Below, piece by piece: positions 1,016 through 14,939 of a stretch of DNA of 14,939 nt. Position numbers and translations under genes: made by a program. Numbering within the stretch: the first letter of the stretch is position 1; every line of letters starts with the position of its first letter. Origin of the DNA: a phage; sequence record PX306536.1. One strand, 5' to 3'. The notes below the pieces were generated by a model. The model had not been told where the DNA came from, did no database searches, and was given only the letters and a program-made list of their open reading frames with translations.

Positions 1016-2677
1016 ATGCCGCGCCGTTCCCGTAAAAAGGTTGAATATAAAATTGCAGCCTTTGACTTTGAAACTGACCCTTTCAAGCATGACCGTATCC
1101 CTAAACCGTTTTCATGGGGTTTTTATAATGGTGAAATTTATAAAGACTATTGGGGCGATGATTGCATAGAACAGTTTATTTACTGGCTGGATACCATAGA
1201 AGAACCCCACGTCATATACGCGCATAACGGCGGCAAGTTTGATTTTCTTTTTCTCATGAAATACTTTCGCGGGAAATTGAAAATAGTTAATGGGCGTATT
1301 TTGGAAGTCGAACACGGTATCCATAAATTCCGCGATAGTTATGCAATCCTACCGGTGCCACTTGCTGCCAGCGATGAAAAGATAGAAATTGATTATGGCA
1401 AGATGGAAAGGGAAACCCGCGAACAGCACAAGGCGGAAATTTTAGAATACCTTAAAGGCGATTGTGTCACCTTGCATAAAATGGTTAGTTTGTTTATTGC
1501 TGAATTTGGAATGCGCCTAACCATAGGCGGTACGGCAATGAATGAATTAAAACAGTTCCACCCTTATGACCCGGTGCGCAAAGGCTTTGATGAAGCTATG
1601 CGCCCCTTTTATTTTGGTGGAAGGTGCCAAGCATTCGAGAAAGGAATAATAGAAGATGATATTAAAGTTTATGACGTTAATAGCATGTACCCCCATGCTA
1701 TGCGAAATTTCCGCCACCCTTTCAGCGATGAATTTTATGAAGCCGATGAAGTAACGGAAGAAACTTATTTTATTGAATGGGAAGGCGAGAATAACGGCGC
1801 GGTGCCAGTAAGGACTAAAACAGGATTAGACTTTAATCAGCGTAGCGGCATTTTCCATACGTCAATCCATGAATGGCAGGCGGGCATTGATACCGGCACG
1901 ATTAAACCTAATCGGATTATAAGGACAATCAATTTTACTGAAACAACCACTTTCGGCGCATTCATTGACCATTTCTTTAGCAAGCGTGACGCGGCCAAAA
2001 AGGCGGGCGATTTATTCCACAATATTTTTTACAAACTTATTTTAAATAGCAGTTATGGGAAGTTTGCGCAAAACCCCGAAAATTATAAAGAGTGGTGCAT
2101 AACGGAAGGCGGCATTTATTTAGAAGGCTATGACGGCGAAGGGTGCGAAGTACAGGAACATTTAGATTATATTTTATGGGGTAGGCCCGCTGAAATGTTT
2201 AATTATTTTAACGTGGCAGTGGCGGCAAGTATTACAGGCGCGGCCCGTTCCGTTTTATTGCGGGCATTGGCGCAAGCGGAAAGGCCGCTTTATTGTGACA
2301 CTGATTCTATTATTTGCCGTGATTTAAAAAATGTCCCGCTTGACGCATACCAGCTAGGCGCGTGGGATTTGGAAGCAACCGGCGATAAAATAGCGATTGC
2401 CGGTAAAAAATTATATGCGCTTTACGCTGGTGATAATTGCGTTAAAATTGCAAGTAAGGGGGCTAGTCTGGTTCCGCGTGATATTGGGTTTTTAATGCCC
2501 CCGGATATGGAACCGAAAGCCGCCAAAAAGGTAGCGCAACAAAAGGCTAAAAATATTGGTGGCGAGAAAATTTTAAAGGTGGCTAATGGCGGCGTGTATG
2601 ATTTTGTAAATGATGCCCCGTCATTTAAGCTAAATGGCAACGTGCAATTTATCAAGCGCACAATCAAAGGAACATAA
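1016..2677 (+). CDS. I: Protein-primed family B DNA polymerase P1, 553 aa
   Basis: Exo I FDFETD, Exo II YAHNGGKFDFLF, Exo III YLKGDCV; polymerase motif A DVNSMYPHAM, motif B KLILNSSYGKFAQ, motif C YCDTDS (2291-2308). RBS AAGGGGG at 1001-1007. Confidence 0.95.
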   Translation: MPRRSRKKVEYKIAAFDFETDPFKHDRIPKPFSWGFYNGEIYKDYWGDDCIEQFIYWLDTIEEPHVIYAHNGGKFDFLFLMKYFRGKLKIVNGRILEVEHGIHKFRDSYAILPVPLAASDEKIEIDYGKMERETREQHKAEILEYLKGDCVTLHKMVSLFIAEFGMRLTIGGTAMNELKQFHPYDPVRKGFDEAMRPFYFGGRCQAFEKGIIEDDIKVYDVNSMYPHAMRNFRHPFSDEFYEADEVTEETYFIEWEGENNGAVPVRTKTGLDFNQRSGIFHTSIHEWQAGIDTGTIKPNRIIRTINFTETTTFGAFIDHFFSKRDAAKKAGDLFHNIFYKLILNSSYGKFAQNPENYKEWCITEGGIYLEGYDGEGCEVQEHLDYILWGRPAEMFNYFNVAVAASITGAARSVLLRALAQAERPLYCDTDSIICRDLKNVPLDAYQLGAWDLEATGDKIAIAGKKLYALYAGDNCVKIASKGASLVPRDIGFLMPPDMEPKAAKKVAQQKAKNIGGEKILKVANGGVYDFVNDAPSFKLNGNVQFIKRTIKGT

Positions 2678-2678
2678 A

Positions 2679-3128
2679 ATGCAATATACACTTTGGGATA
2701 TTATCAGCCGCGTGGAAAGCAACGGGAATTTAAAAGCGTTGCGGTTTGAACCGGAATACTATCAGCGGCGCATGGCGCGGGGCGATTGGAATAATTCGAT
2801 TATTCAAAATATCCGCGCCGCCAATAAATGCAGCTTAGGCACTGCCCGCATGATTTATTGCAGTTCATGGGGCGCGGTTCAAATCATGGGATTTAATCTT
2901 TATTTGGACGGCGCATTTAATTTGAGCGTTGCGCATTTCATGGAAAATGAAGCGTATCAAGTAAATGAATTTCGGCGCTTCCTTTTGAAAAATGGATTAA
3001 CTGAATATACGCCTGAAAGGCTGGCGAGTGATAAAGCGGCCCGCGTTAAATTCGCCAAGGTTTATAACGGCGCTGAAAGTTACGCGGATTTAATTTTGCA
3101 AGCCTGCCAATTTTACGGGGTGAAATAA
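2679..3128 (+). CDS. XV: Soluble lytic enzyme P15 (muramidase-type endolysin), 149 aa
   Basis: ATG at 2679 preceded by RBS AAAGGA (2666-2671), immediately after the polymerase stop. The ORF track's upstream extension to 2634 overlaps the polymerase and lacks an RBS. Size matches PRD1 P15. Confidence 0.8.
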
Positions 3129-4903
3129 TGGCTAATTTCAACGTGCCTAAATTGGGCGTTTTTCCGGTTGCTGCCGTTTTCGATATTGACAACGTGCCGG
3201 AAGATTCCAGCGCAACGGGTAGCCGCTGGCTACCTTCAATTTATCAGGGCGGTAATTATTGGGGCGGTGGCCCGCAAGCGTTGCGCGTTCAGGTAAGCAA
3301 TTTTGATGCTACTAACCGCCTGCCCTATAACCCGCGCACTGAAAATAACCCGGCTGGAAATTGCGCTTTTGCGTTTAATCCTTTCGGTCAATATATTTCT
3401 AATATCAGTAGTGCGCAAAGTGTGCATAGGCGCATTTACGGAATCGACCTAAATGATGAACCGCTTTTCACGCCTAACGCTGCAAGCATTACAAACGGCG
3501 GCAATCCTACAATGTCGCAAGATTATGCTTATCACAATATCGGCCCGATTAATTCCGCGTATAAGGCCGAAATTTTCCGGCCTGTAAATCCGTTGCCAAT
3601 GAGTGATACAGCGCCTGACCCTGAAACATTGGAACCGGGGCAAACGGAACCGCTTATTAAATCCGATGGTATTTATTCAAATAGCGGTATTGCGTCATTT
3701 ATTTTTGATAGGCCCGTAACGGAACCTAACCCAAATTGGCCCCCGCTGCCCCCGCCTGTAATTCCAATTATTTACCCTACCCCCGCGCTAGGCATTGGCG
3801 CGGCGGCGGCGTATGGCTTTGGCTATCAAGTGACGGTTTATAGATGGGAAGAAATACCCGTTGAATTTATCGCTGACCCTGAAACCTGCCCCGCGCAACC
3901 GACAACGGATAAGGTAATAATCAGGACAACCGATTTAAACCCGGAAGGTTCGCCGTGCGCTTATGAAGCCGGAATTATTTTAGTTCGCCAAACGTCTAAC
4001 CCAATGAATGCGGTAGCGGGGCGGCTGGTTCCTTATGTTGAAGATATAGCGGTTGATATTTTCCTGACAGGGAAATTTTTCACGCTTAACCCGCCTTTGC
4101 GAATTACCAATAATTATTTTGCGGATGATGAAGTAAAAGAAAACACTGTCACCATAGGCAATTACACTACCACGCTTTCAAGCGCCTATTATGCAATGTT
4201 TAAAACTGACGGCTACGGCGGGGCCACTTGCTTTATAGCGTCTGGTGGTGCTGGTATTTCCGCGCTTGTTCAATTGCAAGATAATAGCGTTTTGGACGTG
4301 CTTTATTATTCGCTGCCGCTTTCATTGGGTGGAAGCAAAGCGGCAATTGATGAATGGGTGGCGAATAATTGCGGGCTTTTTCCTATGTCCGGTGGGCTGG
4401 ATAAAACCACGCTGCTAGAAATTCCGCGCCGTCAATTGGAAGCTATAACCCCGCAAGATGGGCCGGGGCAGGATGATTTATTTATTCTGGATGATTCCGG
4501 CGCGTATGCTAGTTTTTCATCCTTTATCGGTTTTCCTGAATCCGCCTATTATGTTGCAGGCGCTGCCACTTTTATGGACGTTGAAAACCCGGATGAAATT
4601 ATTTTTATCTTGCGAAATGGCGCGGGCTGGTATGCTTGCGAAATTGGCGATGCGTTAAAAATTGCGGATGATGAATTTGATTCCGTGGATTATTTCGCGT
4701 ATCGCGGGGGCGTTATGTTTATTGGTTCGGCGCGTTATACCGAAGGGGGCGACCCGCTACCCATTAAATATAGGGCGATTATTCCAGCGTTGCCGCGTGG
4801 GCGTTTGCCGCGTGTAGTGTTAGAATATCAAGCGGTGGGAATGTCGTTTATTCCTTGTCAAACGCATTGCCTTGGCAAAGGCGGAATTATTTCAAAGGTG
4901 TAA
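3128..4903 (+). CDS. II: Receptor-binding (adsorption) protein P2, 591 aa
   Basis: 591-aa ORF, start overlaps the XV stop (TAATG); position and size match PRD1 P2. Confidence 0.85.
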
Positions 4904-4906
4904 ATT

Positions 4907-5287
4907 ATGAATGTGAATAATCCCAATCAAATGACGGTAACGCCTGTTTATAACGGTTGCGATTCCGGCGAAGGCCCGCAAAGTGTGCGCGGTTACTTTG
5001 ACGCGGTAGCGGGCGAGAATATCAAGTTTGATATGACTTATCTTGCCGATACGCAAGGCTTTACCGGCGTTCAATGTATCTATATTGATAACGCGGAAAA
5101 TGACGGCGCGTTTGAAATTGACGTTGAAGAAACGGGCCAGCGGATTAAATGCCCTGCCGGTAAGCAAGGCTATTTTCCTTTGCTGGTTCCGGGCCGTGCT
5201 AAATTTGTGGCGCGTCATTTGGGCAGCGGCAAAAAATCGGTGCCTTTGTTTTTCCTTAACTTCACTATTGCGCAAGGGGTTTGGTAA
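4907..5287 (+). CDS. XXXI: Penton (vertex base) protein P31, 126 aa
   Basis: 126 aa, RBS AAAGGTG upstream; paralogous to the N-terminal domain of the next ORF (TGQRIxxxAGxQGYxP...F[LI]NFxIAxGVW). Confidence 0.85.
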   Translation: MNVNNPNQMTVTPVYNGCDSGEGPQSVRGYFDAVAGENIKFDMTYLADTQGFTGVQCIYIDNAENDGAFEIDVEETGQRIKCPAGKQGYFPLLVPGRAKFVARHLGSGKKSVPLFFLNFTIAQGVW

Positions 5288-6309
5288 TGGCTAATCAACA
5301 AATTGGCGGTAGCACGGTAACTTATAACGGCGCTATCCCTATGGGTGGCCCGGTGGCAATTAATACCGTTATTGAAATTGCAGGCACGGAAGTTTTAGTT
5401 GATTTAAAACTTGACTATGCAACCGGCAAAATTTCGGGCGTTCAAACTCTTTATATCGACTTGCGCGATTTTTTGGGTGACGTAACCGTGACCATGCCGG
5501 ACACCGGGCAGCGCATTACGGCGCGGGCAGGTACGCAAGGTTATTACCCGGTGCTATCCACTAACCTTATGAAATTCATTGTATCCGCCACTATTGACGG
5601 AAAATTCCCAATGAATTTTATTAACTTCCCTATTGCGCTTGGCGTATGGCCTAGCGGAATTAAAGGCGATAAAGGCGACCCCGGCGCACCCGGCCCCGCT
5701 GGTGGTACGGTTGTTGTTGAAGATTCCGGCGCGTCATCTGGTGAAAGCCTGCTAGACACTACCAGCGAACCGGGCAAAATTCTGGTTAAACGAATTTCGG
5801 CGGGCAGCGGAATTACCGTTACTGATTATGGCGATGAAGTGGAAATTGAAGCCAGCGGCGGCGGTGGTGGCGGTGGCGGTGTAACTGATGCGCTTTCATT
5901 AATGTATTCGACCAGTACGGGCGGGCCTGCAAGTATTGCGGCCAATGCGCTTACTGATTTTGATTTGTCCGGGGCGCTGACTGTAAATAGCGTGGGAACT
6001 GGTTTGACAAAATCAGCCGCTGGCATTCAATTAGCGGCGGGTAAATCCGGGCTTTATCAAATTACCATGACGGTAAAAAATAATACCGTGACAGCGGGAA
6101 ATTATTTATTGCGCGTTAAATACGGTAGTAGTGAATTTGTAGCGGCCTGCCCCGCCAGTAGCCTGACCGCTGGCGGTACAATTTCACTACTGATTTATTG
6201 CAACGTGTTAGGCGTTCCAAGCCTTGACGTGCTAAAATTCAGTTTGTGTAATAGCGGGGCGGCGCTTAGTAATTACATTATTAATATCACTGCCGCGAAA
6301 ATTAATTAA
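5287..6309 (+). CDS. V: Vertex spike protein P5, 340 aa, with P31-like N-domain, collagen-like Gly-X-Y stretch and Gly8 hinge
   Basis: ATG at 5287 overlaps the XXXI stop (TAATG); the track's 5281 start is a TTG. N-domain similar to P31; GIKGDKGDPGAPGPAGG at 5656-5706; Gly8 at 5857-5880. Confidence 0.88.
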   Translation: MANQQIGGSTVTYNGAIPMGGPVAINTVIEIAGTEVLVDLKLDYATGKISGVQTLYIDLRDFLGDVTVTMPDTGQRITARAGTQGYYPVLSTNLMKFIVSATIDGKFPMNFINFPIALGVWPSGIKGDKGDPGAPGPAGGTVVVEDSGASSGESLLDTTSEPGKILVKRISAGSGITVTDYGDEVEIEASGGGGGGGGVTDALSLMYSTSTGGPASIAANALTDFDLSGALTVNSVGTGLTKSAAGIQLAAGKSGLYQITMTVKNNTVTAGNYLLRVKYGSSEFVAACPASSLTAGGTISLLIYCNVLGVPSLDVLKFSLCNSGAALSNYIINITAAKIN

Positions 6310-6327
6310 CCTGAAAGGTGACTGAAA

Positions 6328-6588
6328 ATGATGGGAAAAGGTTTTGAAATGATGGTTGCCAGCGCAATCCGTGCCGCTGGTATTAATCCTGATGAATTGA
6401 TGGAAAAGGCTAATACCCTTGTCCATAATTTGAATTACCAGCTTGACCGATTCGGCCAGCGGCTGGATTCCATTGATTCGCGCCTTTCGGTAATTGAAAA
6501 GGCGCTTGATATTTCCCCGGCAGAAAAGCCGGACAATCAGCCCGAATTAACGGGTATTACTTTTGAAGGTGACGCCAATGACCAATGA
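6328..6588 (+). CDS. XVII: Assembly protein P17, 86 aa
   Basis: 86-aa ORF with RBS GAAAGGTGA upstream; size and position match PRD1 P17. Confidence 0.75.
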   Translation: MMGKGFEMMVASAIRAAGINPDELMEKANTLVHNLNYQLDRFGQRLDSIDSRLSVIEKALDISPAEKPDNQPELTGITFEGDANDQ

Positions 6589-6784
6589 AGAAAAATTGAT
6601 TGCTGAAATTGATAGCGCGGGCCTTTCGGCTGAAATGCTGGAATCCATGCCAAGCCCTGAAATGTTCCCGCTTATTATTGTCAATCTGCAAGGGCGTATT
6701 GCCGAACTGGAAGCGCGGGAAACTGAAATGCTGGCCCGCGTTGATACGCTGATTGCCCGCCTTGCGCATTTGGGGGTAGCCTAA
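6578..6784 (+). CDS. XXXIII: Assembly protein P33, 68 aa
   Basis: ATG at 6578 preceded by GAAGGTGA; the track's 6563 start is a TTG. Overlaps the XVII 3' end by 11 nt; coiled-coil-like sequence. Confidence 0.7.
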   Translation: MTNEEKLIAEIDSAGLSAEMLESMPSPEMFPLIIVNLQGRIAELEARETEMLARVDTLIARLAHLGVA

Positions 6785-7284
6785 TGGATACCGAAGAAAT
6801 TAAAGAGGAAATGCAGGAAGCCGCCGAAGCCGCCATAGAAAACGCGGTTGAAACTGCCGAACTGGAAACAGCCGCTATTAAAGCGGAAGGGGCGGCGGCA
6901 GCGGCGGAACAATCGGCAGAACAAGCGGCGGTAATGGCCGCGACCCTTGCCGCAAGTGTTGAAGCAAACGCCGCGCAACAAATCGCGGAACATTCGGAAC
7001 AGGTACAAACACAAGAGGAAAAAATATCATGGCTGGAAAATCAAGTAATGGCGATGGCGTCAAATTTGCAGATGATGCAGGAAGCGGTAACAGCATTGAC
7101 GGTATCGCAATCATTGACCCCGGAACCGTCACCAGCGCCAGCGGTGGAAGTGGAAGCGATGCCGGAAGCGGTGACAGTGGAAATACTCCCCGAAAGCGCG
7201 GGCGACCAGCCGGAAGCGGAACCGGCGCAAAGCGTGGGCGACCAGCCGGAAACAGCGCCGCGAAAAAGGTTCCGGGCAATCTAG
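6784..7284 (+). CDS. VI: Minor capsid / DNA packaging protein P6, 166 aa, acidic and Ala/Glu-rich
   Basis: 166-aa ORF, start overlaps the XXXIII stop (TAATG); strongly acidic low-complexity N-terminal half. Confidence 0.8.
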   Translation: MDTEEIKEEMQEAAEAAIENAVETAELETAAIKAEGAAAAAEQSAEQAAVMAATLAASVEANAAQQIAEHSEQVQTQEEKISWLENQVMAMASNLQMMQEAVTALTVSQSLTPEPSPAPAVEVEAMPEAVTVEILPESAGDQPEAEPAQSVGDQPETAPRKRFRAI

Positions 7285-7640
7285 GCGTTGAAAAAATCCT
7301 TTTCAGTTTGCACTTGATGGCGTCAAGCGCGTTGAAGGTTGAAGAACTGGCGCTTGATGAAAAGGAAGCCGAAGCCCTTGCCGGGGCAGTGCAGGAAGTG
7401 GCGAGCCATTACGATATTACCCCTGACCCTAAAATCATGGCATGGGCGGGATTGTTTGGCGTTTGCGCTTCTATTTATGGCCCCCGCGTTGCAGCTTATA
7501 AAATGCGGGCGGCGGCTGAAAAGCGCGATAAAAAGGAAGCGGCTAAACCGATGGCCCAAAAGGTACAGGAAGCCAAGCCAACGGAACATGACCCGGCAGC
7601 GCCTTACATTGAACAATTGCCAGTAAGTAACCTGCTATGA
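7029..7640 (+). CDS. X: Assembly (scaffolding-like) protein P10, 203 aa, overprinted on the 3' third of gene VI
   Basis: 203-aa ORF in a different frame from VI, overlapping it by 256 nt; contains two KRGRPAG AT-hook-like motifs. Confidence 0.8.
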   Translation: MAGKSSNGDGVKFADDAGSGNSIDGIAIIDPGTVTSASGGSGSDAGSGDSGNTPRKRGRPAGSGTGAKRGRPAGNSAAKKVPGNLGVEKILFSLHLMASSALKVEELALDEKEAEALAGAVQEVASHYDITPDPKIMAWAGLFGVCASIYGPRVAAYKMRAAAEKRDKKEAAKPMAQKVQEAKPTEHDPAAPYIEQLPVSNLL

Positions 7641-8320
7641 CAATACGAATGCCAAACGATAGACAACGTATTCTAGTGCTAGGCAAAACCGGCACCGGGA
7701 AAACTTGCGCCGCCGTTTGGCATTTATCCCAAAAGGATTTTAAGCGCAAGGCGTGGATTGTCCTAAACCATAAGGGCGATGATTTAATTGATTCCATTGA
7801 AGGGGCTAACCATGTAGATTTAAATTTTCGACCTAAAAAACCGGGGCTTTATATTTACCATCCTATCCCTGATGTTGATGATGCGGAAGTAACGCAATTG
7901 CTTTGGGATATTCACGCGATGGGCGATATTGGCGTTTATGTTGATGAAGGGTACATGATTCCAAACCGTGACCCGGCATTTCAGGCGCTACTTACTCAAG
8001 GCCGGAGTAAGAAAATCCCGATGATTATTTTAAGCCAGCGGCCCGTATGGCTTACCCGCTTTGCCATTTCGGAATCGGATTTTTTCCAGATATTCCAATT
8101 AGGCGACCAGCGCGATAGGCAAACCGTGCAAGGTTTTGTTCCGGTGGATTTGGAAAAATTAATGCAAGCGCCTGTAAATACAGTGCCAGCATTAAAAAAA
8201 TTCCATTCAATTTATTATGACGTGGGCGCTAATAATTGCGTTATAATGACACCGGTTCCTACCGCTGACGCCGTTTTGGCCCGGTTCGACCTTGGCAAGA
8301 AAAGAAAGCAAACCCTGTAA
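7637..8320 (+). CDS. IX: DNA packaging ATPase P9, 227 aa
   Basis: Walker A GKTGTGKT (7682-7705) and Walker B-like IGVYVDEG; ATGA overlap with the gene X stop. Confidence 0.92.
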   Translation: MTIRMPNDRQRILVLGKTGTGKTCAAVWHLSQKDFKRKAWIVLNHKGDDLIDSIEGANHVDLNFRPKKPGLYIYHPIPDVDDAEVTQLLWDIHAMGDIGVYVDEGYMIPNRDPAFQALLTQGRSKKIPMIILSQRPVWLTRFAISESDFFQIFQLGDQRDRQTVQGFVPVDLEKLMQAPVNTVPALKKFHSIYYDVGANNCVIMTPVPTADAVLARFDLGKKRKQTL

Positions 8321-8331
8321 AGGAAAACGCT

Positions 8332-8460
8332 ATGACTGAAAATATCATTAGTTGGAATGTCGCCAATTGGGTGACAGTAATTTTAATGGCGCTTGCCGGT
8401 TATGCGGTGCTGGCTTTAGCTGCCAAGGTAATTAACAACCGCGCACAGGAACCGGCATAA
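8332..8460 (+). CDS. XX: Small single-pass membrane protein, 42 aa, P20-like (packaging vertex)
   Basis: ATG at 8332 with RBS AAGGA; one hydrophobic helix (NWVTVILMALAGYAVLALAA); size matches PRD1 P20. Confidence 0.65.
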   Translation: MTENIISWNVANWVTVILMALAGYAVLALAAKVINNRAQEPA

Positions 8461-8588
8461 TGGTTAATTGGGAATTGTTGAAAAACCCCATTAATTGGCT
8501 TATCGTCATTCTCATGCTGACCATTGCAGGAATGGCGGCTACCCTTGTTTGTAACCACTTCGGCAAAAATGCCGTCACTTCGGAGTAA
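8460..8588 (+). CDS. Small single-pass membrane protein, 42 aa, tandem paralog of the preceding ORF (could correspond to P22 or an unnamed ORF)
   Basis: TAATG overlap with the preceding ORF; shares the NW-x-x-VILM transmembrane pattern with it. Confidence 0.55.
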   Translation: MVNWELLKNPINWLIVILMLTIAGMAATLVCNHFGKNAVTSE

Positions 8589-8594
8589 TTAAAT

Positions 8595-9782
8595 ATGGCA
8601 CAGGTTCAACAACTGACCCCCGCTCAACAGGCGGCATTGCGCAATCAGCAGGCTATGGCGGCAAACTTGCAGGCCCGTCAAATTGTCCTGCAACAGTCTT
8701 ACCCTGTTATCCAGCAGGTTGAAACGCAAACTTTCGACCCGGCTAACCGTTCCGTGTTTGACGTGACCCCGGCGAACGTGGGCATTGTCAAAGGCTTTTT
8801 GGTGAAGGTAACGGCGGCTATCAAAAATAACCACGCTACCGAAGCGGTGGCCCTTACTGACTTCGGCCCGGCTAACCTTGTTCAACGTGTCATTTATTAT
8901 GACCCGGACAACCAGCGCCACACTGAAACCAGCGGCTGGCATTTGCATTTTGTGAATACCGCCAAACAAGGTGCGCCGTTCCTTTCCAGCATGGTAACGG
9001 ATTCGCCCATTAAGTACGGCGATGTTATGAACGTCATTGATGCCCCGGCAACTATTGCGGCGGGCGCTACTGGCGAACTGACCATGTACTATTGGGTTCC
9101 GCTTGCCTATTCCGAAACCGATTTGACCGGGGCGGTTTTGGCGAACGTGCCGCAAAGTAAGCAGCGCCTGAAACTGGAATTTGCGAACAACAATACCGCC
9201 TTTGCGGCGGTGGGCGCTAATCCGCTGGAAGCGATTTATCAGGGCGCGGGCGCGGCTGATTGCGAGTTTGAAGAAATTTCTTACACCGTTTATCAGTCTT
9301 ACCTTGACCAACTGCCGGTAGGCCAGAACGGTTATATCCTGCCGCTGATTGACCTTTCCACTTTGTACAATCTGGAAAACAGCGCACAGGCAGGGCTTAC
9401 CCCTAACGTGGATTTTGTGGTGCAGTATGCAAACCTGTATCGCTACCTTTCCACAATCGCGGTATTCGATAACGGCGGCAGCTTCAATGCTGGCACCGAT
9501 ATTAACTACCTTAGCCAGCGCACGGCTAACTTTTCGGATACCCGGAAACTTGACCCGAAAACGTGGGCCGCGCAAACTCGCCGCCGTATCGCTACCGATT
9601 TTCCGAAGGGCGTTTATTATTGCGACAACCGCGATAAGCCGATTTACACCCTTCAATATGGTAACGTGGGCTTTGTCGTGAATCCTAAAACGGTCAATCA
9701 AAATGCCCGTTTGCTGATGGGTTACGAATACTTCACCAGCCGCACCGAACTGGTGAATGCTGGCACCATTTCCACCACTTAA
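8595..9782 (+). CDS. III: Major capsid protein P3 (double jelly-roll), 395 aa
   Basis: 395-aa ORF beginning MAQVQQLTPAQQAAL, which matches my recollection of the PRD1 P3 N-terminus; correct size and position. Confidence 0.95.
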   Translation: MAQVQQLTPAQQAALRNQQAMAANLQARQIVLQQSYPVIQQVETQTFDPANRSVFDVTPANVGIVKGFLVKVTAAIKNNHATEAVALTDFGPANLVQRVIYYDPDNQRHTETSGWHLHFVNTAKQGAPFLSSMVTDSPIKYGDVMNVIDAPATIAAGATGELTMYYWVPLAYSETDLTGAVLANVPQSKQRLKLEFANNNTAFAAVGANPLEAIYQGAGAADCEFEEISYTVYQSYLDQLPVGQNGYILPLIDLSTLYNLENSAQAGLTPNVDFVVQYANLYRYLSTIAVFDNGGSFNAGTDINYLSQRTANFSDTRKLDPKTWAAQTRRRIATDFPKGVYYCDNRDKPIYTLQYGNVGFVVNPKTVNQNARLLMGYEYFTSRTELVNAGTISTT

Positions 9783-9800
9783 TAAAGGGGGCATTCCGCC

Positions 9801-9944
9801 ATGCAGCTAATCACTGATATGGCGGAATGGTCTAAAAAGCCATTCCGCCCTGATATGTCGCTAACCGGCTGGCTTGCGTTTGTGGGCCTAATCATTGTTG
9901 CCATTATCCTTTGGCAGCAAATTATCCGTTTCATTATCGAATAA
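9801..9944 (+). CDS. Small membrane protein, 47 aa (size matches PRD1 P22; assignment uncertain)
   Basis: ATG at 9801 after GGGGG; one transmembrane helix; start codon sits in the left arm of an 11-bp inverted repeat, with an in-frame Met7 at 9819. Confidence 0.5.
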   Translation: MQLITDMAEWSKKPFRPDMSLTGWLAFVGLIIVAIILWQQIIRFIIE

Positions 9945-9954
9945 GGAAACTACC

Positions 9955-10038
9955 ATGAAAATTTTCGGCATTTCTGTTTTCACAATCGCCCTTATTGCCT
10001 TGGCTTACTACCTTGGCACTAAGCGCATTATCGGGTAA
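9955..10038 (+). CDS. Small hydrophobic protein, 27 aa (unnamed ORF)
   Basis: ATG at 9955 with RBS AAGGA (9943-9947); the translation is essentially one transmembrane helix. Confidence 0.4.
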   Translation: MKIFGISVFTIALIALAYYLGTKRIIG

Positions 10039-10043
10039 CGATT

Positions 10044-10166
10044 ATGCGCGGCAATTTGGCGCTTGCCATGATTCTATTTGGCTTTGTCGTGTATGCCGCA
10101 AATAGCGGCGCTTTCGGGCGCTTGCTTTATGTAATCGGGTTCCGCGATAAACCGGAGGGATATTAA
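10044..10166 (+). CDS. Small membrane protein, 40 aa (unnamed ORF)
   Basis: ATG at 10044 with a weak RBS; hydrophobic core ILFGFVVYAA; fills the gap before XVIII exactly. Confidence 0.35.
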   Translation: MRGNLALAMILFGFVVYAANSGAFGRLLYVIGFRDKPEGY

Positions 10167-10167
10167 T

Positions 10168-10440
10168 ATGCCCTTCGGTTTAATCGTTATTGGAATCATC
10201 CTTGCAATAGCCGCTTACCGCGATACGCTTGGCGAATTGTTTAGCATCATTAAGGACGTTTCAAAAGATGCTAAGGGGTTTGGCTATTGGGTATTGGCGG
10301 CGGTTATTTTGGGATTCGCGGCAAGTATCAAGCCAATAAAAGAGCCGGTTAATGCGTTTATGATTTTGCTGATGATTGTTCTACTAATCCGCAAGCGTGG
10401 CGCTATTGACCAAATTTCTAACCAACTAAGGGGCAGCTAA
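10168..10440 (+). CDS. XVIII: Membrane DNA-delivery protein P18, 90 aa
   Basis: Strong RBS GGAGGGA (10153-10159); two hydrophobic segments; size matches PRD1 P18. Confidence 0.75.
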   Translation: MPFGLIVIGIILAIAAYRDTLGELFSIIKDVSKDAKGFGYWVLAAVILGFAASIKPIKEPVNAFMILLMIVLLIRKRGAIDQISNQLRGS

Positions 10441-10604
10441 TGGGCGAGTTTGGCAAAACCCTAATAACGATTGTGACGGCTATTATTGGCGTTGCAATTA
10501 TTGCCGTTATCGTGTCACAGCGAAGTAATACGGCTGGCGTGATTCAATCCGCCACAAGCGGATTTTCCAATATCCTTAAATCGGCGCTTGCGCCTATCAT
10601 TTAA
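10440..10604 (+). CDS. XXXII: Membrane DNA-delivery protein P32, 54 aa
   Basis: TAATG overlap with XVIII, RBS AAGGGG; transmembrane helix followed by NTAGVI motif; paralog of the next ORF. Confidence 0.7.
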   Translation: MGEFGKTLITIVTAIIGVAIIAVIVSQRSNTAGVIQSATSGFSNILKSALAPII

Positions 10605-10616
10605 AAGGTGAATGAC

Positions 10617-10823
10617 ATGAATGATTTTGTTGGCCCTATCGTTACCGTTTTGACCGCTATTATCGGCGTGGCAATTCTTGCCGTGCTGGTTAGCCGCAAC
10701 AGTAATACCGCTGGCGTTATCAAGGCCGGTTCCGGTGGCTTTTCCAGTATGCTAGGCACGGCGCTTTCGCCTGTTACTGGTGGCACTGGTTTTGCCATGA
10801 CCAATAATTACAGCGGTTTTTAA
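10617..10823 (+). CDS. XXXIV: Membrane protein P34, 68 aa, paralog of P32
   Basis: ATG at 10617 with RBS AAAGGTGA; the track's 10608 start is a GTG. Shares TAIIGVAI-x-AV-x-VS-x-SNTAGVI with P32. Confidence 0.7.
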   Translation: MNDFVGPIVTVLTAIIGVAILAVLVSRNSNTAGVIKAGSGGFSSMLGTALSPVTGGTGFAMTNNYSGF

Positions 10824-10832
10824 GGGGGTAAC

Positions 10833-11087
10833 ATGGCACTGATTAATCCGCAATTTCCATACGCGGGGCCGGTGCCGATTCCCGGCCCTGCCCCTACCGA
10901 AACCATGCCGCTTTTGAATTACCGGGTAGAAGGCCGCATTGCTGGTATTCAGCAGGCGCGGCAGTTTATGCCGTTCCTGCAAGGGCCGCACCGGGCGGTA
11001 GCCGAACAAACCTATCACGCGATTGGTACAGGTATTCAAATGGGGCAAACATTCAATCAGCCCTTGATTAACACTCAAGAGGGCTAA
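10833..11087 (+). CDS. XXX: Minor capsid protein P30 (capsid-stabilising / tape-measure-like), 84 aa
   Basis: 84-aa Pro-rich extended protein with RBS AAGGGGG upstream; size matches PRD1 P30. Confidence 0.75.
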   Translation: MALINPQFPYAGPVPIPGPAPTETMPLLNYRVEGRIAGIQQARQFMPFLQGPHRAVAEQTYHAIGTGIQMGQTFNQPLINTQEG

Positions 11088-11089
11088 GG

Positions 11090-11200
11090 ATGAAAACCGC
11101 CATTTTTATATTGGCTGTAATGTTTGCGGCTTTGCTTTGGCTAGGCCGCGAGCATTGCATTTTGTGCCAATGGTTCAAACGCATTTCAAACGGGGCTTAA
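11090..11200 (+). CDS. Small membrane protein, 36 aa (unnamed ORF)
   Basis: ATG at 11090 following GAGGG; transmembrane helix FILAVMFAALLWL; exactly fills the XXX-XI gap. Confidence 0.4.
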   Translation: MKTAIFILAVMFAALLWLGREHCILCQWFKRISNGA

Positions 11201-11201
11201 T

Positions 11202-11825
11202 ATGGAAAAGGTAAAAGCATGGCTCATTAAATATAAGTGGTGGATTGTGGCGGCTATTGGTGGCCTTGCCGCATTTCTGCTACTTAAAAACCGTGGCGGT
11301 GGTGGCGGCGGCGGCGGTGAATATATGGTAGGAAGCGGGCCGGTTTATCAGCAGGCCGGAAGCGGCGCGGTGGATAACACTATGGCGCTTGCTGCCCTGC
11401 AAGCCAATACGCAACTATCCGCACAGAATGCACAATTGCAGGCGCAAATGGACGCCAGCCGTTTGCAGCTTGAAACCCAATTGAACATTGAAACGCTTGC
11501 CGCTGATAACGCGCATTACAGCACGCAAAGCCAATTGCAGCTTGGCATGGCGCAAGTGGATTTGTCTAAATACCTTGGCGACCTGCAAAGCACCACTAGC
11601 ACGGCGCTTGCTGGTATGCAATCCGATACCGCCAAGTATCAAAGCAATATCCAATTGCAGGCCGAAAATATCCGCGCTAATACTTCACTTGCTGAAATTG
11701 ACGCGCAAAAATACATTGTCGGCAAACAAGCCGATATTGCCAAGTATCAAGCGAAAACAGAACGGCGCGGGCAGGACTACGGTTTTGCTTTGGGCTTGCT
11801 GAATTTCGGCGGCAAATTCTTTTAA
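11202..11825 (+). CDS. XI: DNA-delivery protein P11, 207 aa, with N-terminal membrane anchor, Gly8 linker and Gln-rich domain
   Basis: 207-aa ORF; Gly8 at 11295-11318; Q/A-rich repetitive body; size matches PRD1 P11. Confidence 0.85.
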   Translation: MEKVKAWLIKYKWWIVAAIGGLAAFLLLKNRGGGGGGGGEYMVGSGPVYQQAGSGAVDNTMALAALQANTQLSAQNAQLQAQMDASRLQLETQLNIETLAADNAHYSTQSQLQLGMAQVDLSKYLGDLQSTTSTALAGMQSDTAKYQSNIQLQAENIRANTSLAEIDAQKYIVGKQADIAKYQAKTERRGQDYGFALGLLNFGGKFF

Positions 11826-11835
11826 GGGGTAAATC

Positions 11836-12189
11836 ATGGACAAAAAGAAATTGCTTTATTGGGTGGGCGGCGGGCTGGTGCTGATTCTTATCTGGCTTTG
11901 GTTCCGCAATCGACCAGCCGCGCAAGTGGCAAGCAATTGGGAAGGCCCGCCGTATATGACGTATAACCAGCCGCAAGCCGGTAGCGTCACCCTGCCGGTG
12001 GCTGGCTATACTTCGCCTTCCCTGACACTGCCGAACCGCAACCGTTCATGCGGTTGTAACCCGGCAGTATCGGCAGCAATGGCACAGGGCGCGGATTTGG
12101 CAAGTAAATTGACTGAAAGCATTTCCAGCCAGCTTAATAACTATGCCGAAAGTCTTAATGATTATTTGGCTTCACAAGCGGGGGTTTAA
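11836..12189 (+). CDS. XVI: Vertex-membrane linker / infectivity protein P16, 117 aa
   Basis: RBS AAGGGG; N-terminal transmembrane helix; size matches PRD1 P16. Confidence 0.75.
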   Translation: MDKKKLLYWVGGGLVLILIWLWFRNRPAAQVASNWEGPPYMTYNQPQAGSVTLPVAGYTSPSLTLPNRNRSCGCNPAVSAAMAQGADLASKLTESISSQLNNYAESLNDYLASQAGV

Positions 12190-12999
12190 ATGGCTGGTGC
12201 GCTGCAATGGTGGGAAACTATCGGCGCGGCTTCGGCGCAATATAACCTTGACCCGCGCCTAGTGGCCGGGGTTGTCCAAACGGAATCATCCGGCAACCCC
12301 CGCGCCATTTCAGGCGCGGGCGCTATGGGTTTAATGCAGCTTATGCCAGCGACCGCCAAAAGTTTAGGCGTAACAAACGCCTATGACCCTACACAAAACA
12401 TTTATGGTGGCGCGGCCCTTTTGCGTGAAAACCTTGATAGATACGGCGATGTTAATACGGCGTTGCTTGCTTATCACGGCGGAACTAATCAAGCAAATTG
12501 GGGCGCTAAAACAAAATCTTATCCGGGTAAGGTTATGGAAAATATCAATTTGCTTTTCGGTAATAGCGGCCCGGTAGTAACGCCAGCGGCAGGAATTGCG
12601 CCAGTATCCGGGGCGCAAGAAATGACCGCCGTTAATATCAGCGACTATACCGCGCCTGATTTAACGGGGCTTACTATGGGGGCGGGTAGTCCTGAATTTA
12701 CAGGCGGGGCTAGTGGTTCATGGGGCGAAGAAACGCCAGAAGAAAACGTGCCGTGGTATCGCGTAGATAAGCACGTTGCGAACGCGGCGGGTTCCGCTTA
12801 TGACGCGGTGGCAGGGGCAGTAAGCGCACCAGTGGAAGCGGCAGGAAACTACGCCTTGCGGGGCGTGGTAATTATTGCGGCGGTGGCAATTGTTGTTGTT
12901 GGTTTGTACTTCCTTTTTCAAGATGAAATTAACAGCGCCGCCATGAAGATGATTCCAGCCGGTAAGGCGGCAGGGGCAGCGGCTAAGGCAATGTCATGA
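12190..12999 (+). CDS. VII: Virion lytic transglycosylase P7 (SLT domain) with C-terminal membrane anchor, 269 aa; C-terminal portion may also be made as P14
   Basis: SLT catalytic signature VVQTESSGNPRAISGAGAMGLMQLMPATA; C-terminal transmembrane helix VVIIAAVAIVVVGLYFLF. Confidence 0.9.
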   Translation: MAGALQWWETIGAASAQYNLDPRLVAGVVQTESSGNPRAISGAGAMGLMQLMPATAKSLGVTNAYDPTQNIYGGAALLRENLDRYGDVNTALLAYHGGTNQANWGAKTKSYPGKVMENINLLFGNSGPVVTPAAGIAPVSGAQEMTAVNISDYTAPDLTGLTMGAGSPEFTGGASGSWGEETPEENVPWYRVDKHVANAAGSAYDAVAGAVSAPVEAAGNYALRGVVIIAAVAIVVVGLYFLFQDEINSAAMKMIPAGKAAGAAAKAMS

Positions 13000-13349
13000 T
13001 GGGAAATGATGAATGGTGGAAGTATCTAATTTTTCCGCTAGTGGCTACGCTTGGCGGAATTGTCAATTACTCAAAAAGGGCGCTTGCCATGAAACGCTTT
13101 TCTAAACTTGAATTTGCGGTTGAAGCGGTAAGCGCCGCGTTTGTGGGCTTGATGGTAACGCTAGGCGGGGCGGCTATGGATTTATCGCCGCACTGGCTAG
13201 GCATGGCGGCGGGAATGTCTGGATGGATGGGCGCGGATTTTGTCAAGGCGGTTTTCTCGCAATTTGTGCAAAGCAAGATTGGCCCTATCAATCAGCCGGG
13301 GCCGATAGATTCCGACAATGACAAGCCGGGGCGAACCTTCAATGATTAA
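12996..13349 (+). CDS. XXXV: Holin P35, 117 aa
   Basis: Multiple hydrophobic helices with a charged C-terminus, located directly upstream of a spanin pair; ATGTCATGATG overlap with the VII stop. Confidence 0.8.
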   Translation: MMGNDEWWKYLIFPLVATLGGIVNYSKRALAMKRFSKLEFAVEAVSAAFVGLMVTLGGAAMDLSPHWLGMAAGMSGWMGADFVKAVFSQFVQSKIGPINQPGPIDSDNDKPGRTFND

Positions 13350-13704
13350 ATGGGTTTTGTCTAACCTGAAAAGCGTGGCCGCTATTGCGGTTGCGCTTTT
13401 AATGCTTGCTAACTTTGGTTATTCAATTTTAGCGGCTAAAAAAATAACGGGGCTTCAAAATGAAATTAAAGCCATTGAAGAAAAGGCGACCGCAAACGCC
13501 AAAGCGGTGGAAGCCCTTCAATCAGTACGCGCAAGCGATGCGAAAGCAATCGCGGCAATTCAGGAAGGCCAGACAATTATCAGCGGCAAACTTAGCCGAA
13601 CAATTAGCGGATTGGGAAGGGTAAGCGATGAAACTAAACAAATTCTTGATAGTCCTATGCCTGCCGATGTTCGCGGCTTGTTCAACAACAGCCCCGAAAA
13701 TTGA
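13318..13704 (+). CDS. XXXVI: Rz-like inner-membrane spanin P36 (alternative start ATG 13342)
   Basis: N-terminal transmembrane helix followed by a coiled-coil-like periplasmic domain; overlaps the holin 3' end. Confidence 0.7.
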
Positions 13705-13900
13705 AACCGTTTATCTGGTTCCGCCGCCAAGCCTGCTAACTGAATGCGCCGCGCCTGTTTATCCGTTTATAACGTGGCGGGATTTGGTGGAAGCATACGC
13801 AAAAGAAAAGGCCGCAAGGGAATCATGCGGCCTTCAAATTCAAGAAATAAAAAACTGGTTTAAAGAAACAGTTCCAAGCGAAAGCCGAAAGTTTCAGTAA
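13628..13900 (+). CDS. XXXVII: Rz1-like outer-membrane lipoprotein spanin P37, 90 aa, overlapping the XXXVI 3' end in another frame
   Basis: Signal peptide with lipobox-like FAAC then Pro-rich VPPPS; own RBS GGGAAGGG (13612-13619). Confidence 0.7.
13801..13834 (-). terminator. Intrinsic terminator for the leftward early transcript, embedded in the XXXVII coding sequence
   Basis: 9-bp GC-rich stem AAGGCCGCA/TGCGGCCTT (13808-13816 and 13826-13834) with a 9-nt loop, followed on the minus strand by UUCUUUUG; lies 26 nt beyond the gene XIX stop. Confidence 0.55.
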
Positions 13901-14829: not shown

Positions 14830-14939
14830 CTATCGCTTTTCCGTTTGTGATAGTTCGGGCCTATCGGATGCAGGGGGTATTGACAGACGGAAATAAAAAT
14901 GTTAGGGGCGCGGGTAGGTGGGGAGGGGCACGTATCCCC
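14830..14939. repeat. Right inverted terminal repeat (110 bp), genome terminus ending CCCC
   Basis: Exact reverse complement of positions 1-110. Confidence 0.95.

Follow-up and report, generated by a model that had tools for sequence, protein, structure and literature searches.

The window analysed here, 14,939 bp in length (sequence record PX306536.1), comprises the whole genome of a membrane-containing phage of the PRD1 group. It almost certainly carries the lysis and entry system of PRD1 in a new isolate, with P15 as endolysin, P35 as holin, P36 and P37 as spanin, and P7 and P14 as entry proteins. The split layout of the genes for cell-wall enzyme, holin and spanin, to which an earlier note on this DNA had drawn attention, is real and already known: it is the well-studied arrangement of PRD1.

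The phage is assigned to the same species as PRD1 (Alphatectivirus PRD1), as a new isolate, on the evidence of its nucleotide sequence, which is collinear with that of PRD1 (AY848689) and 97.5% identical to it across 100% of its length (an overall divergence of 2.5%), above the 95% identity taken as the bound for membership. The gene annotation of PRD1 transfers one to one onto the new, linear genome, and the inverted terminal repeats of 110 nt (arms at 1-110 and 14830-14939, 100% complementary) are identical to those of PRD1. In a nucleotide search, 75 records each covered at least 80% of the query; the closest record in the searched phage collection is at most 98.2% identical. Genes XV, VII/XIV, XXXV, XXXVI and XXXVII, associated with lysis and entry, show the same order and overlaps as in PRD1, at coordinates within 12 nt of those of PRD1. 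Because their products are 94-99% identical to named PRD1 counterparts and match Pfam and PHROG families with E-values of 1e-9 to 1e-156, these are regarded as homology-backed genes, not chance ORFs. An ORF of 401 aa on the strand complementary to the coat protein gene (8589-9794) was considered as a gene but rejected, as it has no support and is unannotated in every relative. The genes at issue and their predicted products are as follows.

Terminal protein gene, 233-1012: first gene from the left
DNA polymerase gene (gene I), 1016-2677: second gene from the left
Gene XV, 2679..3128, + strand: P15 (149 aa), soluble single-domain N-acetylmuramidase of the PF11860/DUF3380 type
Gene VII, 12190..12999, + strand: P7 (269 aa), SLT lytic transglycosylase domain and C-terminal membrane anchor
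Gene XIV, 12535..12999, + strand: P14 (154 aa), from an in-frame internal start inside gene VII
Gene XXXV, 12996..13349, + strand: P35 (117 aa), holin
Gene XXXVI, 13342..13704, + strand: P36 (120 aa), Rz-like inner-membrane spanin
Gene XXXVII, 13628..13900, + strand: P37 (90 aa), Rz1-like outer-membrane lipoprotein spanin

The earlier note had described the P15 gene as third from the left and about 10 kb away from the holin gene. It is indeed preceded by the terminal protein and DNA polymerase genes, and 9,868 bp lie between the end of gene XV and the start of gene XXXV. A mechanical ORF call places the start of gene XV at 2634, but PRD1 annotation agrees with a start at 2679; the resulting protein differs from PRD1 P15 by three substitutions. 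The muramidase fold proposed for P15 was borne out. The protein scores 38.5 bits against the curated PF11860/DUF3380 cut-off of 22.3 in Pfam (E 1.9e-9), the P15-family profile matches 7q4s, 5nm7 and 7rum among PDB sequences at 1e-7 to 2e-6, and hhalign of P15 to AP3gp15 gives 96% probability. The fold is lysozyme-like and nearest to solved members of PF11860/DUF3380, with AP3gp15 (5nm7) as the best structural match. These profile and hhalign alignments are local and end short of the catalytic helix of P15, and a search of PDB sequences with the first 40 residues of P15 gave no match. In a pairwise global alignment, Glu13, which is invariant among 17 homologues and positioned at the end of a helix at residues 5-14, aligns with E101 of AP3gp15 in a common V-E-S-x-G motif. 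On the strength of this alignment, the shared motif and the invariance, Glu13 is predicted to be the single catalytic glutamate of P15 and the counterpart of Glu101 in AP3gp15.

No transmembrane or signal segment was detected in P15 (maximum 19-residue Kyte-Doolittle value 0.99, no hydrophobic N-terminus), which in this respect matches a canonical holin-dependent endolysin, devoid of a signal peptide or signal-anchor-release segment. As to the bond cleaved, Caldentey et al. 1994 claim muramidase activity for PRD1 P15 in their title (via PMC6356626); a review table (PMC5380687) instead enters P15 as a lytic transglycosylase. Hydrolytic (lysozyme) cleavage has been demonstrated for AP3gp15. Given the 1994 title and the analogy with AP3gp15, cleavage by P15 is predicted to be hydrolytic rather than anhydro-forming. 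A scan bearing on the timing of gene XV returned 25 promoter-like consensus sites for 21.8 expected, not above chance, and 33 terminator-like sites for 24.7 expected, uninformative on the early or late status of the gene. A candidate site at 2421-2448 within gene I came from the same scan, with its overall chance-level yield.

Directly upstream of the holin gene, as previously noted, lies a gene for an SLT transglycosylase with a transmembrane anchor. The SLT domain of P7 (PF01464) extends over aa 10-112 (Pfam, E 4.4e-30), and one hydrophobic segment is found at about aa 224-244, with a hydropathy peak of 2.91. The protein, approximately 94% identical to PRD1 P7, also matches a PHROG transglycosylase (E 8.5e-156) and, at 5e-29, the lytic domain 9b45, which comes from a phage tape-measure protein. 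Its catalytic motif “TES” with Glu32 (QTE32SSGNP) aligns with YTESRFNA of 9b45 and with MltE and MltF. P7 is accordingly classified, by its sequence, as a family 1 (SLT) lytic transglycosylase with a catalytic Glu-Ser motif, and a 1,6-anhydromuramyl product is predicted only. P14, described in PMC6750898 and present in the PRD1 annotation, corresponds to the membrane-anchor part of P7 devoid of the SLT domain. Its ATG is kept at the same position as in PRD1, and aa 116-268 of P7, the part shared with P14, match PHROG 15454. Both proteins feature four extra residues (ETPE) that are absent from PRD1 and present in most other relatives. The corresponding 12-nt difference in gene VII was rejected as an isolate-specific feature, since nearly all relatives share it and PRD1 represents the deletion form.

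The claim that a holin gene and overlapping Rz/Rz1-like spanin genes occupy 12996-13900 is supported by family matches and by gene overlaps. P35, identical to PRD1 P35 at 115/117 positions (two substitutions), matches Phage_holin_3_3 in Pfam (E 4.8e-21, 75.1 bits for a cut-off of 28.4) and a PHROG holin (7e-28). The start codon of its gene and the stop codon of gene VII overlap in the ATGA at 12996-12999. A crude hydropathy scan detected one strong hydrophobic segment at aa 38-63 (three TMDs were predicted in the PRDcerulean P35 orthologue, PMC11015023), and the last 25 residues are polar and acidic. P36 (118/120 identical to PRD1 ORFu, two substitutions) has an N-terminal transmembrane segment at about aa 11-33 and matches the Rz-like spanin PHROG 89 (1.2e-13), with no Pfam match above cut-off. 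An in-frame ATG upstream, at 13318, would yield 128 aa instead. P37 (89/90 identical to PRD1 ORFv, one substitution) matches LysC (Rz1-like) in Pfam (4.9e-19) and a PHROG Rz-like spanin (3.8e-23). Its signal ends LCLPMFAA-C18 with Cys18 as lipobox cysteine; it fails the strict lipobox pattern [LVI][ASTVI][GAS]C through Phe at position -3, a tolerated variant. The two genes overlap by 77 nt (13628-13704) in different frames, and P37 continues 196 nt beyond the P36 stop, an “overlapped” spanin architecture. P36 and P37 are thus assigned as i-spanin and o-spanin of a two-component spanin; P37 is named as the outer-membrane spanin unit in PMC11015023.

The PRD1 holin-endolysin system comprises the virion-associated muramidase P15, the holin P35, and P36/P37 as accessory proteins (PMC6356626). 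In the model derived from it, soluble P15 without export signal would build up in the cytoplasm late in infection until P35, at a set time, opens the inner membrane and P15 gains and hydrolyses peptidoglycan. P36 in the inner membrane and P37 as outer-membrane lipoprotein would then form the spanin that breaks the outer membrane, proteins needed by PRD1 only under less favourable conditions. The anchored lytic transglycosylase P7, together with its truncated form P14, would sit in the virion internal membrane and, at entry, digest peptidoglycan locally as the membrane tube crosses the envelope. P15 would additionally be packaged into virions. Functional roles in this model come from the PRD1 literature, mostly via reviews, and not from the PX306536.1 isolate, for which the basis is identity to PRD1, domain families, the fold and catalytic glutamate of P15, membrane and lipoprotein features, and gene overlaps; its sequence holds nothing against a PRD1-type model. 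We infer that gene XV lies at a distance from the holin cassette as a member of the block of virion genes rather than of a swappable lysis cassette. In favour of the model, the muramidase gene has a conserved position in two relatives, L002 and L003, described below.

The proposal of two peptidoglycan hydrolases with different roles agrees with published work, in which lysis is assigned to P15 and P35 (PMC6356626), and P7 and P14 act in DNA delivery beneath the vertices (PMC3782422, PMC6750898). P7 is an entry enzyme of the virion, as had been thought more likely, in view of its virion-lytic-domain matches and its anchor, with the DNA-delivery role taken from that literature. That the roles are swapped, with P7 acting as the actual endolysin after release or activation at the membrane and P15 serving only in entry, is highly improbable. 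Gene VII does occupy the classical position of an endolysin gene, directly upstream of and overlapping the holin gene, and some phages use SLT-type enzymes as endolysins (PHROG 669), but its product carries a C-terminal anchor and a nested P14, its surroundings are membrane and DNA-delivery genes, and the sequences that P7 matches best are lytic domains of virion proteins, namely a tape-measure protein, lytic tail proteins and internal virion proteins. P15-type muramidases, moreover, serve as endolysins in the cassettes of phage AP3 and of a tailed temperate phage (L004), and the PRD1 genetics summarised in PMC6356626 contradict such a swap.

An overlap of roles, in which packaged P15 also aids entry in some of the numerous hosts that this broad-host-range phage infects, P7 and P15 being partly redundant there and P15 acting alone at lysis, is less remote, though still rather unlikely. 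In the host used by Rydman and Bamford in 2002, DNA replication reportedly began without delay when P15 was lost, which argues against an entry role, and the virion location of P15 is described as controversial. In favour of such overlap, P7 and P15 are both given as virion-associated lysins (PMC5380687) on the viral membrane (PMC5380687, PMC6356626). In addition, the muramidase gene still heads the structural block of virion and vertex genes in a relative at 39% identity with an inverted replication module (L003), and in GC1 a different virion-associated depolymerase occupies its position.

Distinct roles for P15 in lysis and P7 in entry remain the preferred reading, and the layout in relatives bears on how the split arose. 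In another relative, at 47% identity (L002), the muramidase gene follows the DNA polymerase gene and so keeps its place, as it does in L003, and a holin of an unrelated family is encoded mid-genome. In the tailed temperate phage L004, a P15-type muramidase, a P35-type holin and a spanin-like gene form one cassette, which suggests that the tectivirus system was put together from tailed-phage parts and later split into two modules. Tentatively, then, the split may be a lineage-wide design of possible tailed-phage origin, with the muramidase gene fixed at the head of the virion/vertex block because the enzyme is packaged, and the holin/spanin cassette freely exchanged.

PRD1-group phages kill bacteria bearing broad-host-range conjugative resistance plasmids. 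The holin of this group was recently shown to limit host range, which is altered by swapping it (PMC11015023), so that natural variants are useful comparative material. The PX306536.1 genome provides one further natural variant of PRD1-group lysis genes, and raises no new question.

The S-R-Rz/Rz1 system of phage lambda follows the same three-step logic of holin, cytoplasmic endolysin and two-component spanin, and P36 and P37 match Rz-like and Rz1-like families as in its cassette. In lambda, the lysis genes are contiguous, with a lytic transglycosylase (R) as endolysin and Rz1 nested inside Rz; here, by contrast, the endolysin gene lies 9.9 kb off and encodes a DUF3380 muramidase, and the o-spanin gene overlaps the i-spanin gene and extends beyond it. 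AP3gp15 of Burkholderia phage AP3 shares with P15 the PF11860/DUF3380 family and the single glutamate in V-E-S-x-G. However, this 266-aa protein starts with a peptidoglycan-binding domain, and its catalytic domain carries two insertions, whereas P15 represents a minimal 149-aa domain, and the AP3 cassette (antiholin, holin, endolysin, spanins) is contiguous, unlike the split layout seen here. Among other tectiviruses, no holin has been identified in the betatectivirus Bam35, and the gammatectivirus GC1 features a tail-spike-like depolymerase, not a muramidase, after the polymerase gene. Both also have two muralytic enzymes each (P26 and P30 in Bam35), one of them a membrane-associated transglycosylase at an equivalent late-genome position, which in GC1 is a non-orthologous replacement.

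When the complete window was compared by megablast with 50,697 phage records, PRD1-group phages aligned with it collinearly over its full length; the identities were 97.9% for Burkholderia phage vB_Bco-CSP1, 97.5% for PRD1 (AY848689), 97.2% for PR772 and 97.1% for PR5, and 75 records covered at least 80% of the query. Together with perfect inverted terminal repeats of 110 nt (1-110 and 14830-14939), this shows the window to be the full linear genome of a phage in the species Alphatectivirus PRD1. The repeats are without any difference from those of PRD1, the remaining genome being 2.5% divergent. Curated PRD1 annotation transfers to the window one gene to one gene, and whole-genome alignment gave 356 substitutions and one 12-nt indel. 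This sole indel (window 12727-12738, ETPE) lies in the P7/P14 linker; since the 12 nt are present in nearly all other relatives, PRD1 itself is the deletion variant. Divergence from PRD1 is patchy along the genome (window 11836-12999 and 3128-6309), being highest in genes XVI (6.2%) and VII (5.3%), followed by the vertex genes V, II and XXXI (approx. 4%), and smallest in XVIII (0%) and in XXX, IX and the coat protein gene III (each below 1%). Residues identical to the PRD1 counterparts number 146/149 in P15, approximately 254/269 in P7, 115/117 in P35, 118/120 in P36 and 89/90 in P37.

The earlier note had proposed a split lysis system, with the P15 muramidase encoded far from the holin-spanin cassette and P7 as a separate entry enzyme. 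All coordinates of this layout proved correct:

2679-3128: gene XV (P15), third gene, beginning 1 nt past the stop of the DNA polymerase gene
12190-12999: gene VII (P7), directly upstream of the holin gene XXXV
in-frame start at 12535: gene XIV (P14), the anchor part of P7 alone
12996-13349: gene XXXV (P35, holin), overlapping gene VII in ATGA
13342-13704: gene XXXVI (P36), overlapping gene XXXVII
13628-13900: gene XXXVII (P37), overlapping gene XXXVI

The end of gene XV and the start of gene XXXV are 9,868 bp apart, and genes XXXVI and XXXVII share 77 nt in different frames. Gene XV, which presumably heads the late operon OL1, has no intergenic space upstream, and a promoter scan for its transcription unit gave matches at chance level. 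Two consecutive Met codons open the holin gene (window 12996-13001), and an in-frame ATG at 13318, upstream of gene XXXVI, would add 8 residues to P36 if used as the start (window 13318-13344). The convergent genes XXXVII and XIX (ssDNA-binding protein), which a published survey describes as polymorphism hot spots of the PRD1-type phage group, share 41 nt at their 3' ends (window 13860-13900). Elsewhere, an overlap of 256 nt between genes VI and X, which lie in different frames (window 7029-7284), agrees with the PRD1 annotation and is long for such a small genome. A 401-aa ORF on the minus strand (window 8589-9794), antisense to the entire major capsid protein gene, is unannotated in every relative and without supporting evidence, and probably arose as a side effect of codon composition.

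The muramidase fold of P15, whose absence would have refuted the earlier proposal, was borne out. P15 matches PF11860 (N-acetylmuramidase) with 38.5 bits, against a curated Pfam threshold of 22.3, and PHROG 2860 "endolysin" (6e-38). When 16 homologues were gathered and aligned with it, Glu13 and an Arg22-Phe23-Glu24 motif were invariant. The predicted structure (mean pLDDT 96.1) retrieved solved DUF3380-family endolysins at the top of the Foldseek ranking, with modest E-values. Among these proteins, AP3gp15 of Burkholderia phage AP3 (PDB 5nm7) has been proven biochemically to be a lysozyme; its one catalytic residue is Glu101, whose replacement by Ala abolishes 99.4% of activity (PMC5674055). 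Global alignment places "V-E13-S-N-G ... R-F-E24-P" of P15 opposite "V-E101-S-K-G ... L-Y-E118-R" of AP3gp15. P15 is thus a minimal, 149-aa form of the AP3gp15-type catalytic domain, from which a peptidoglycan-binding domain is absent. A search of P15 for a hydrophobic or signal segment found none, so it depends on a holin for access to the wall.

P7 combines an SLT domain (4e-30; Glu-Ser motif at Glu32) with a single, C-terminal membrane segment. Its nearest relatives are virion lytic domains, namely those of a tape-measure protein (9b45, 5e-29), lytic tail proteins and internal virion proteins. P35 belongs to Pfam Phage_holin_3_3 (5e-21), P36 is Rz-like with an N-terminal transmembrane segment, and P37 (Pfam LysC, 5e-19) is a lipoprotein of the Rz1 type, with Cys18 as the lipidation site.

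The holin-endolysin system of PRD1 has been reviewed (PMC6356626, citing Caldentey 1994, Rydman and Bamford 2003, Ziedaite 2005 and Krupovic 2008). P7 and P15 are both listed as lysins of the virion, located on the viral membrane, and only one phage other than PRD1 is known to have two such lysins (PMC5380687). P7/P14 are among the membrane proteins that take part in the DNA-delivery tube, beneath the vertices (PMC3782422, PMC6750898), replacement or mutation of P35 alters host range, and P37 is the outer-membrane spanin unit (PMC11015023). These published roles agree with the earlier interpretation of two hydrolases with different functions; however, since P15 is packaged too, a contrast between virion enzyme and lysis enzyme is not clean. 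The split layout is confirmed and its interpretation supported, for a lysis and entry system already known from PRD1.

Clues on why the system is split came from three contigs with P15-like muramidases. The first, a divergent 14.7-kb tectivirus contig (L002; P15 47% identical), keeps the order terminal protein, polymerase, muramidase. Its holin (6561-6989) lies mid-genome and is of a different family (phrog_3427, PHROG 3427; Pfam GTA_holin_3TM), and no P35-type holin or SLT match was detectable at its right end. In the second, a 16-kb tectivirus-like contig (L003; 39%; region 2664-5677), the polymerase and a neighbour at the terminal-protein position are inverted relative to the structural genes; the muramidase opens the structural block and precedes a P5-spike-like gene, and close to the right end there is an SLT gene. 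The third, from a tailed temperate phage (L004; 42 kb, with tail genes, integrase and ERF), carries its muramidase (43%) downstream of the tail genes in one 2.1-kb cassette (10001-12128), which also encodes a small transmembrane protein, a holin assigned to the same Pfam/PHROG family as P35 and a spanin-like protein (221 aa) whose N-terminus bears a transmembrane segment. In phage AP3, antiholin, holin, DUF3380 endolysin and spanins are likewise all contiguous. Judged by these arrangements, the muramidase gene of tectiviruses appears to travel with the virion genes, and their holin and spanin genes seem to be exchangeable; this extends known ideas modestly, on the basis of three contigs.
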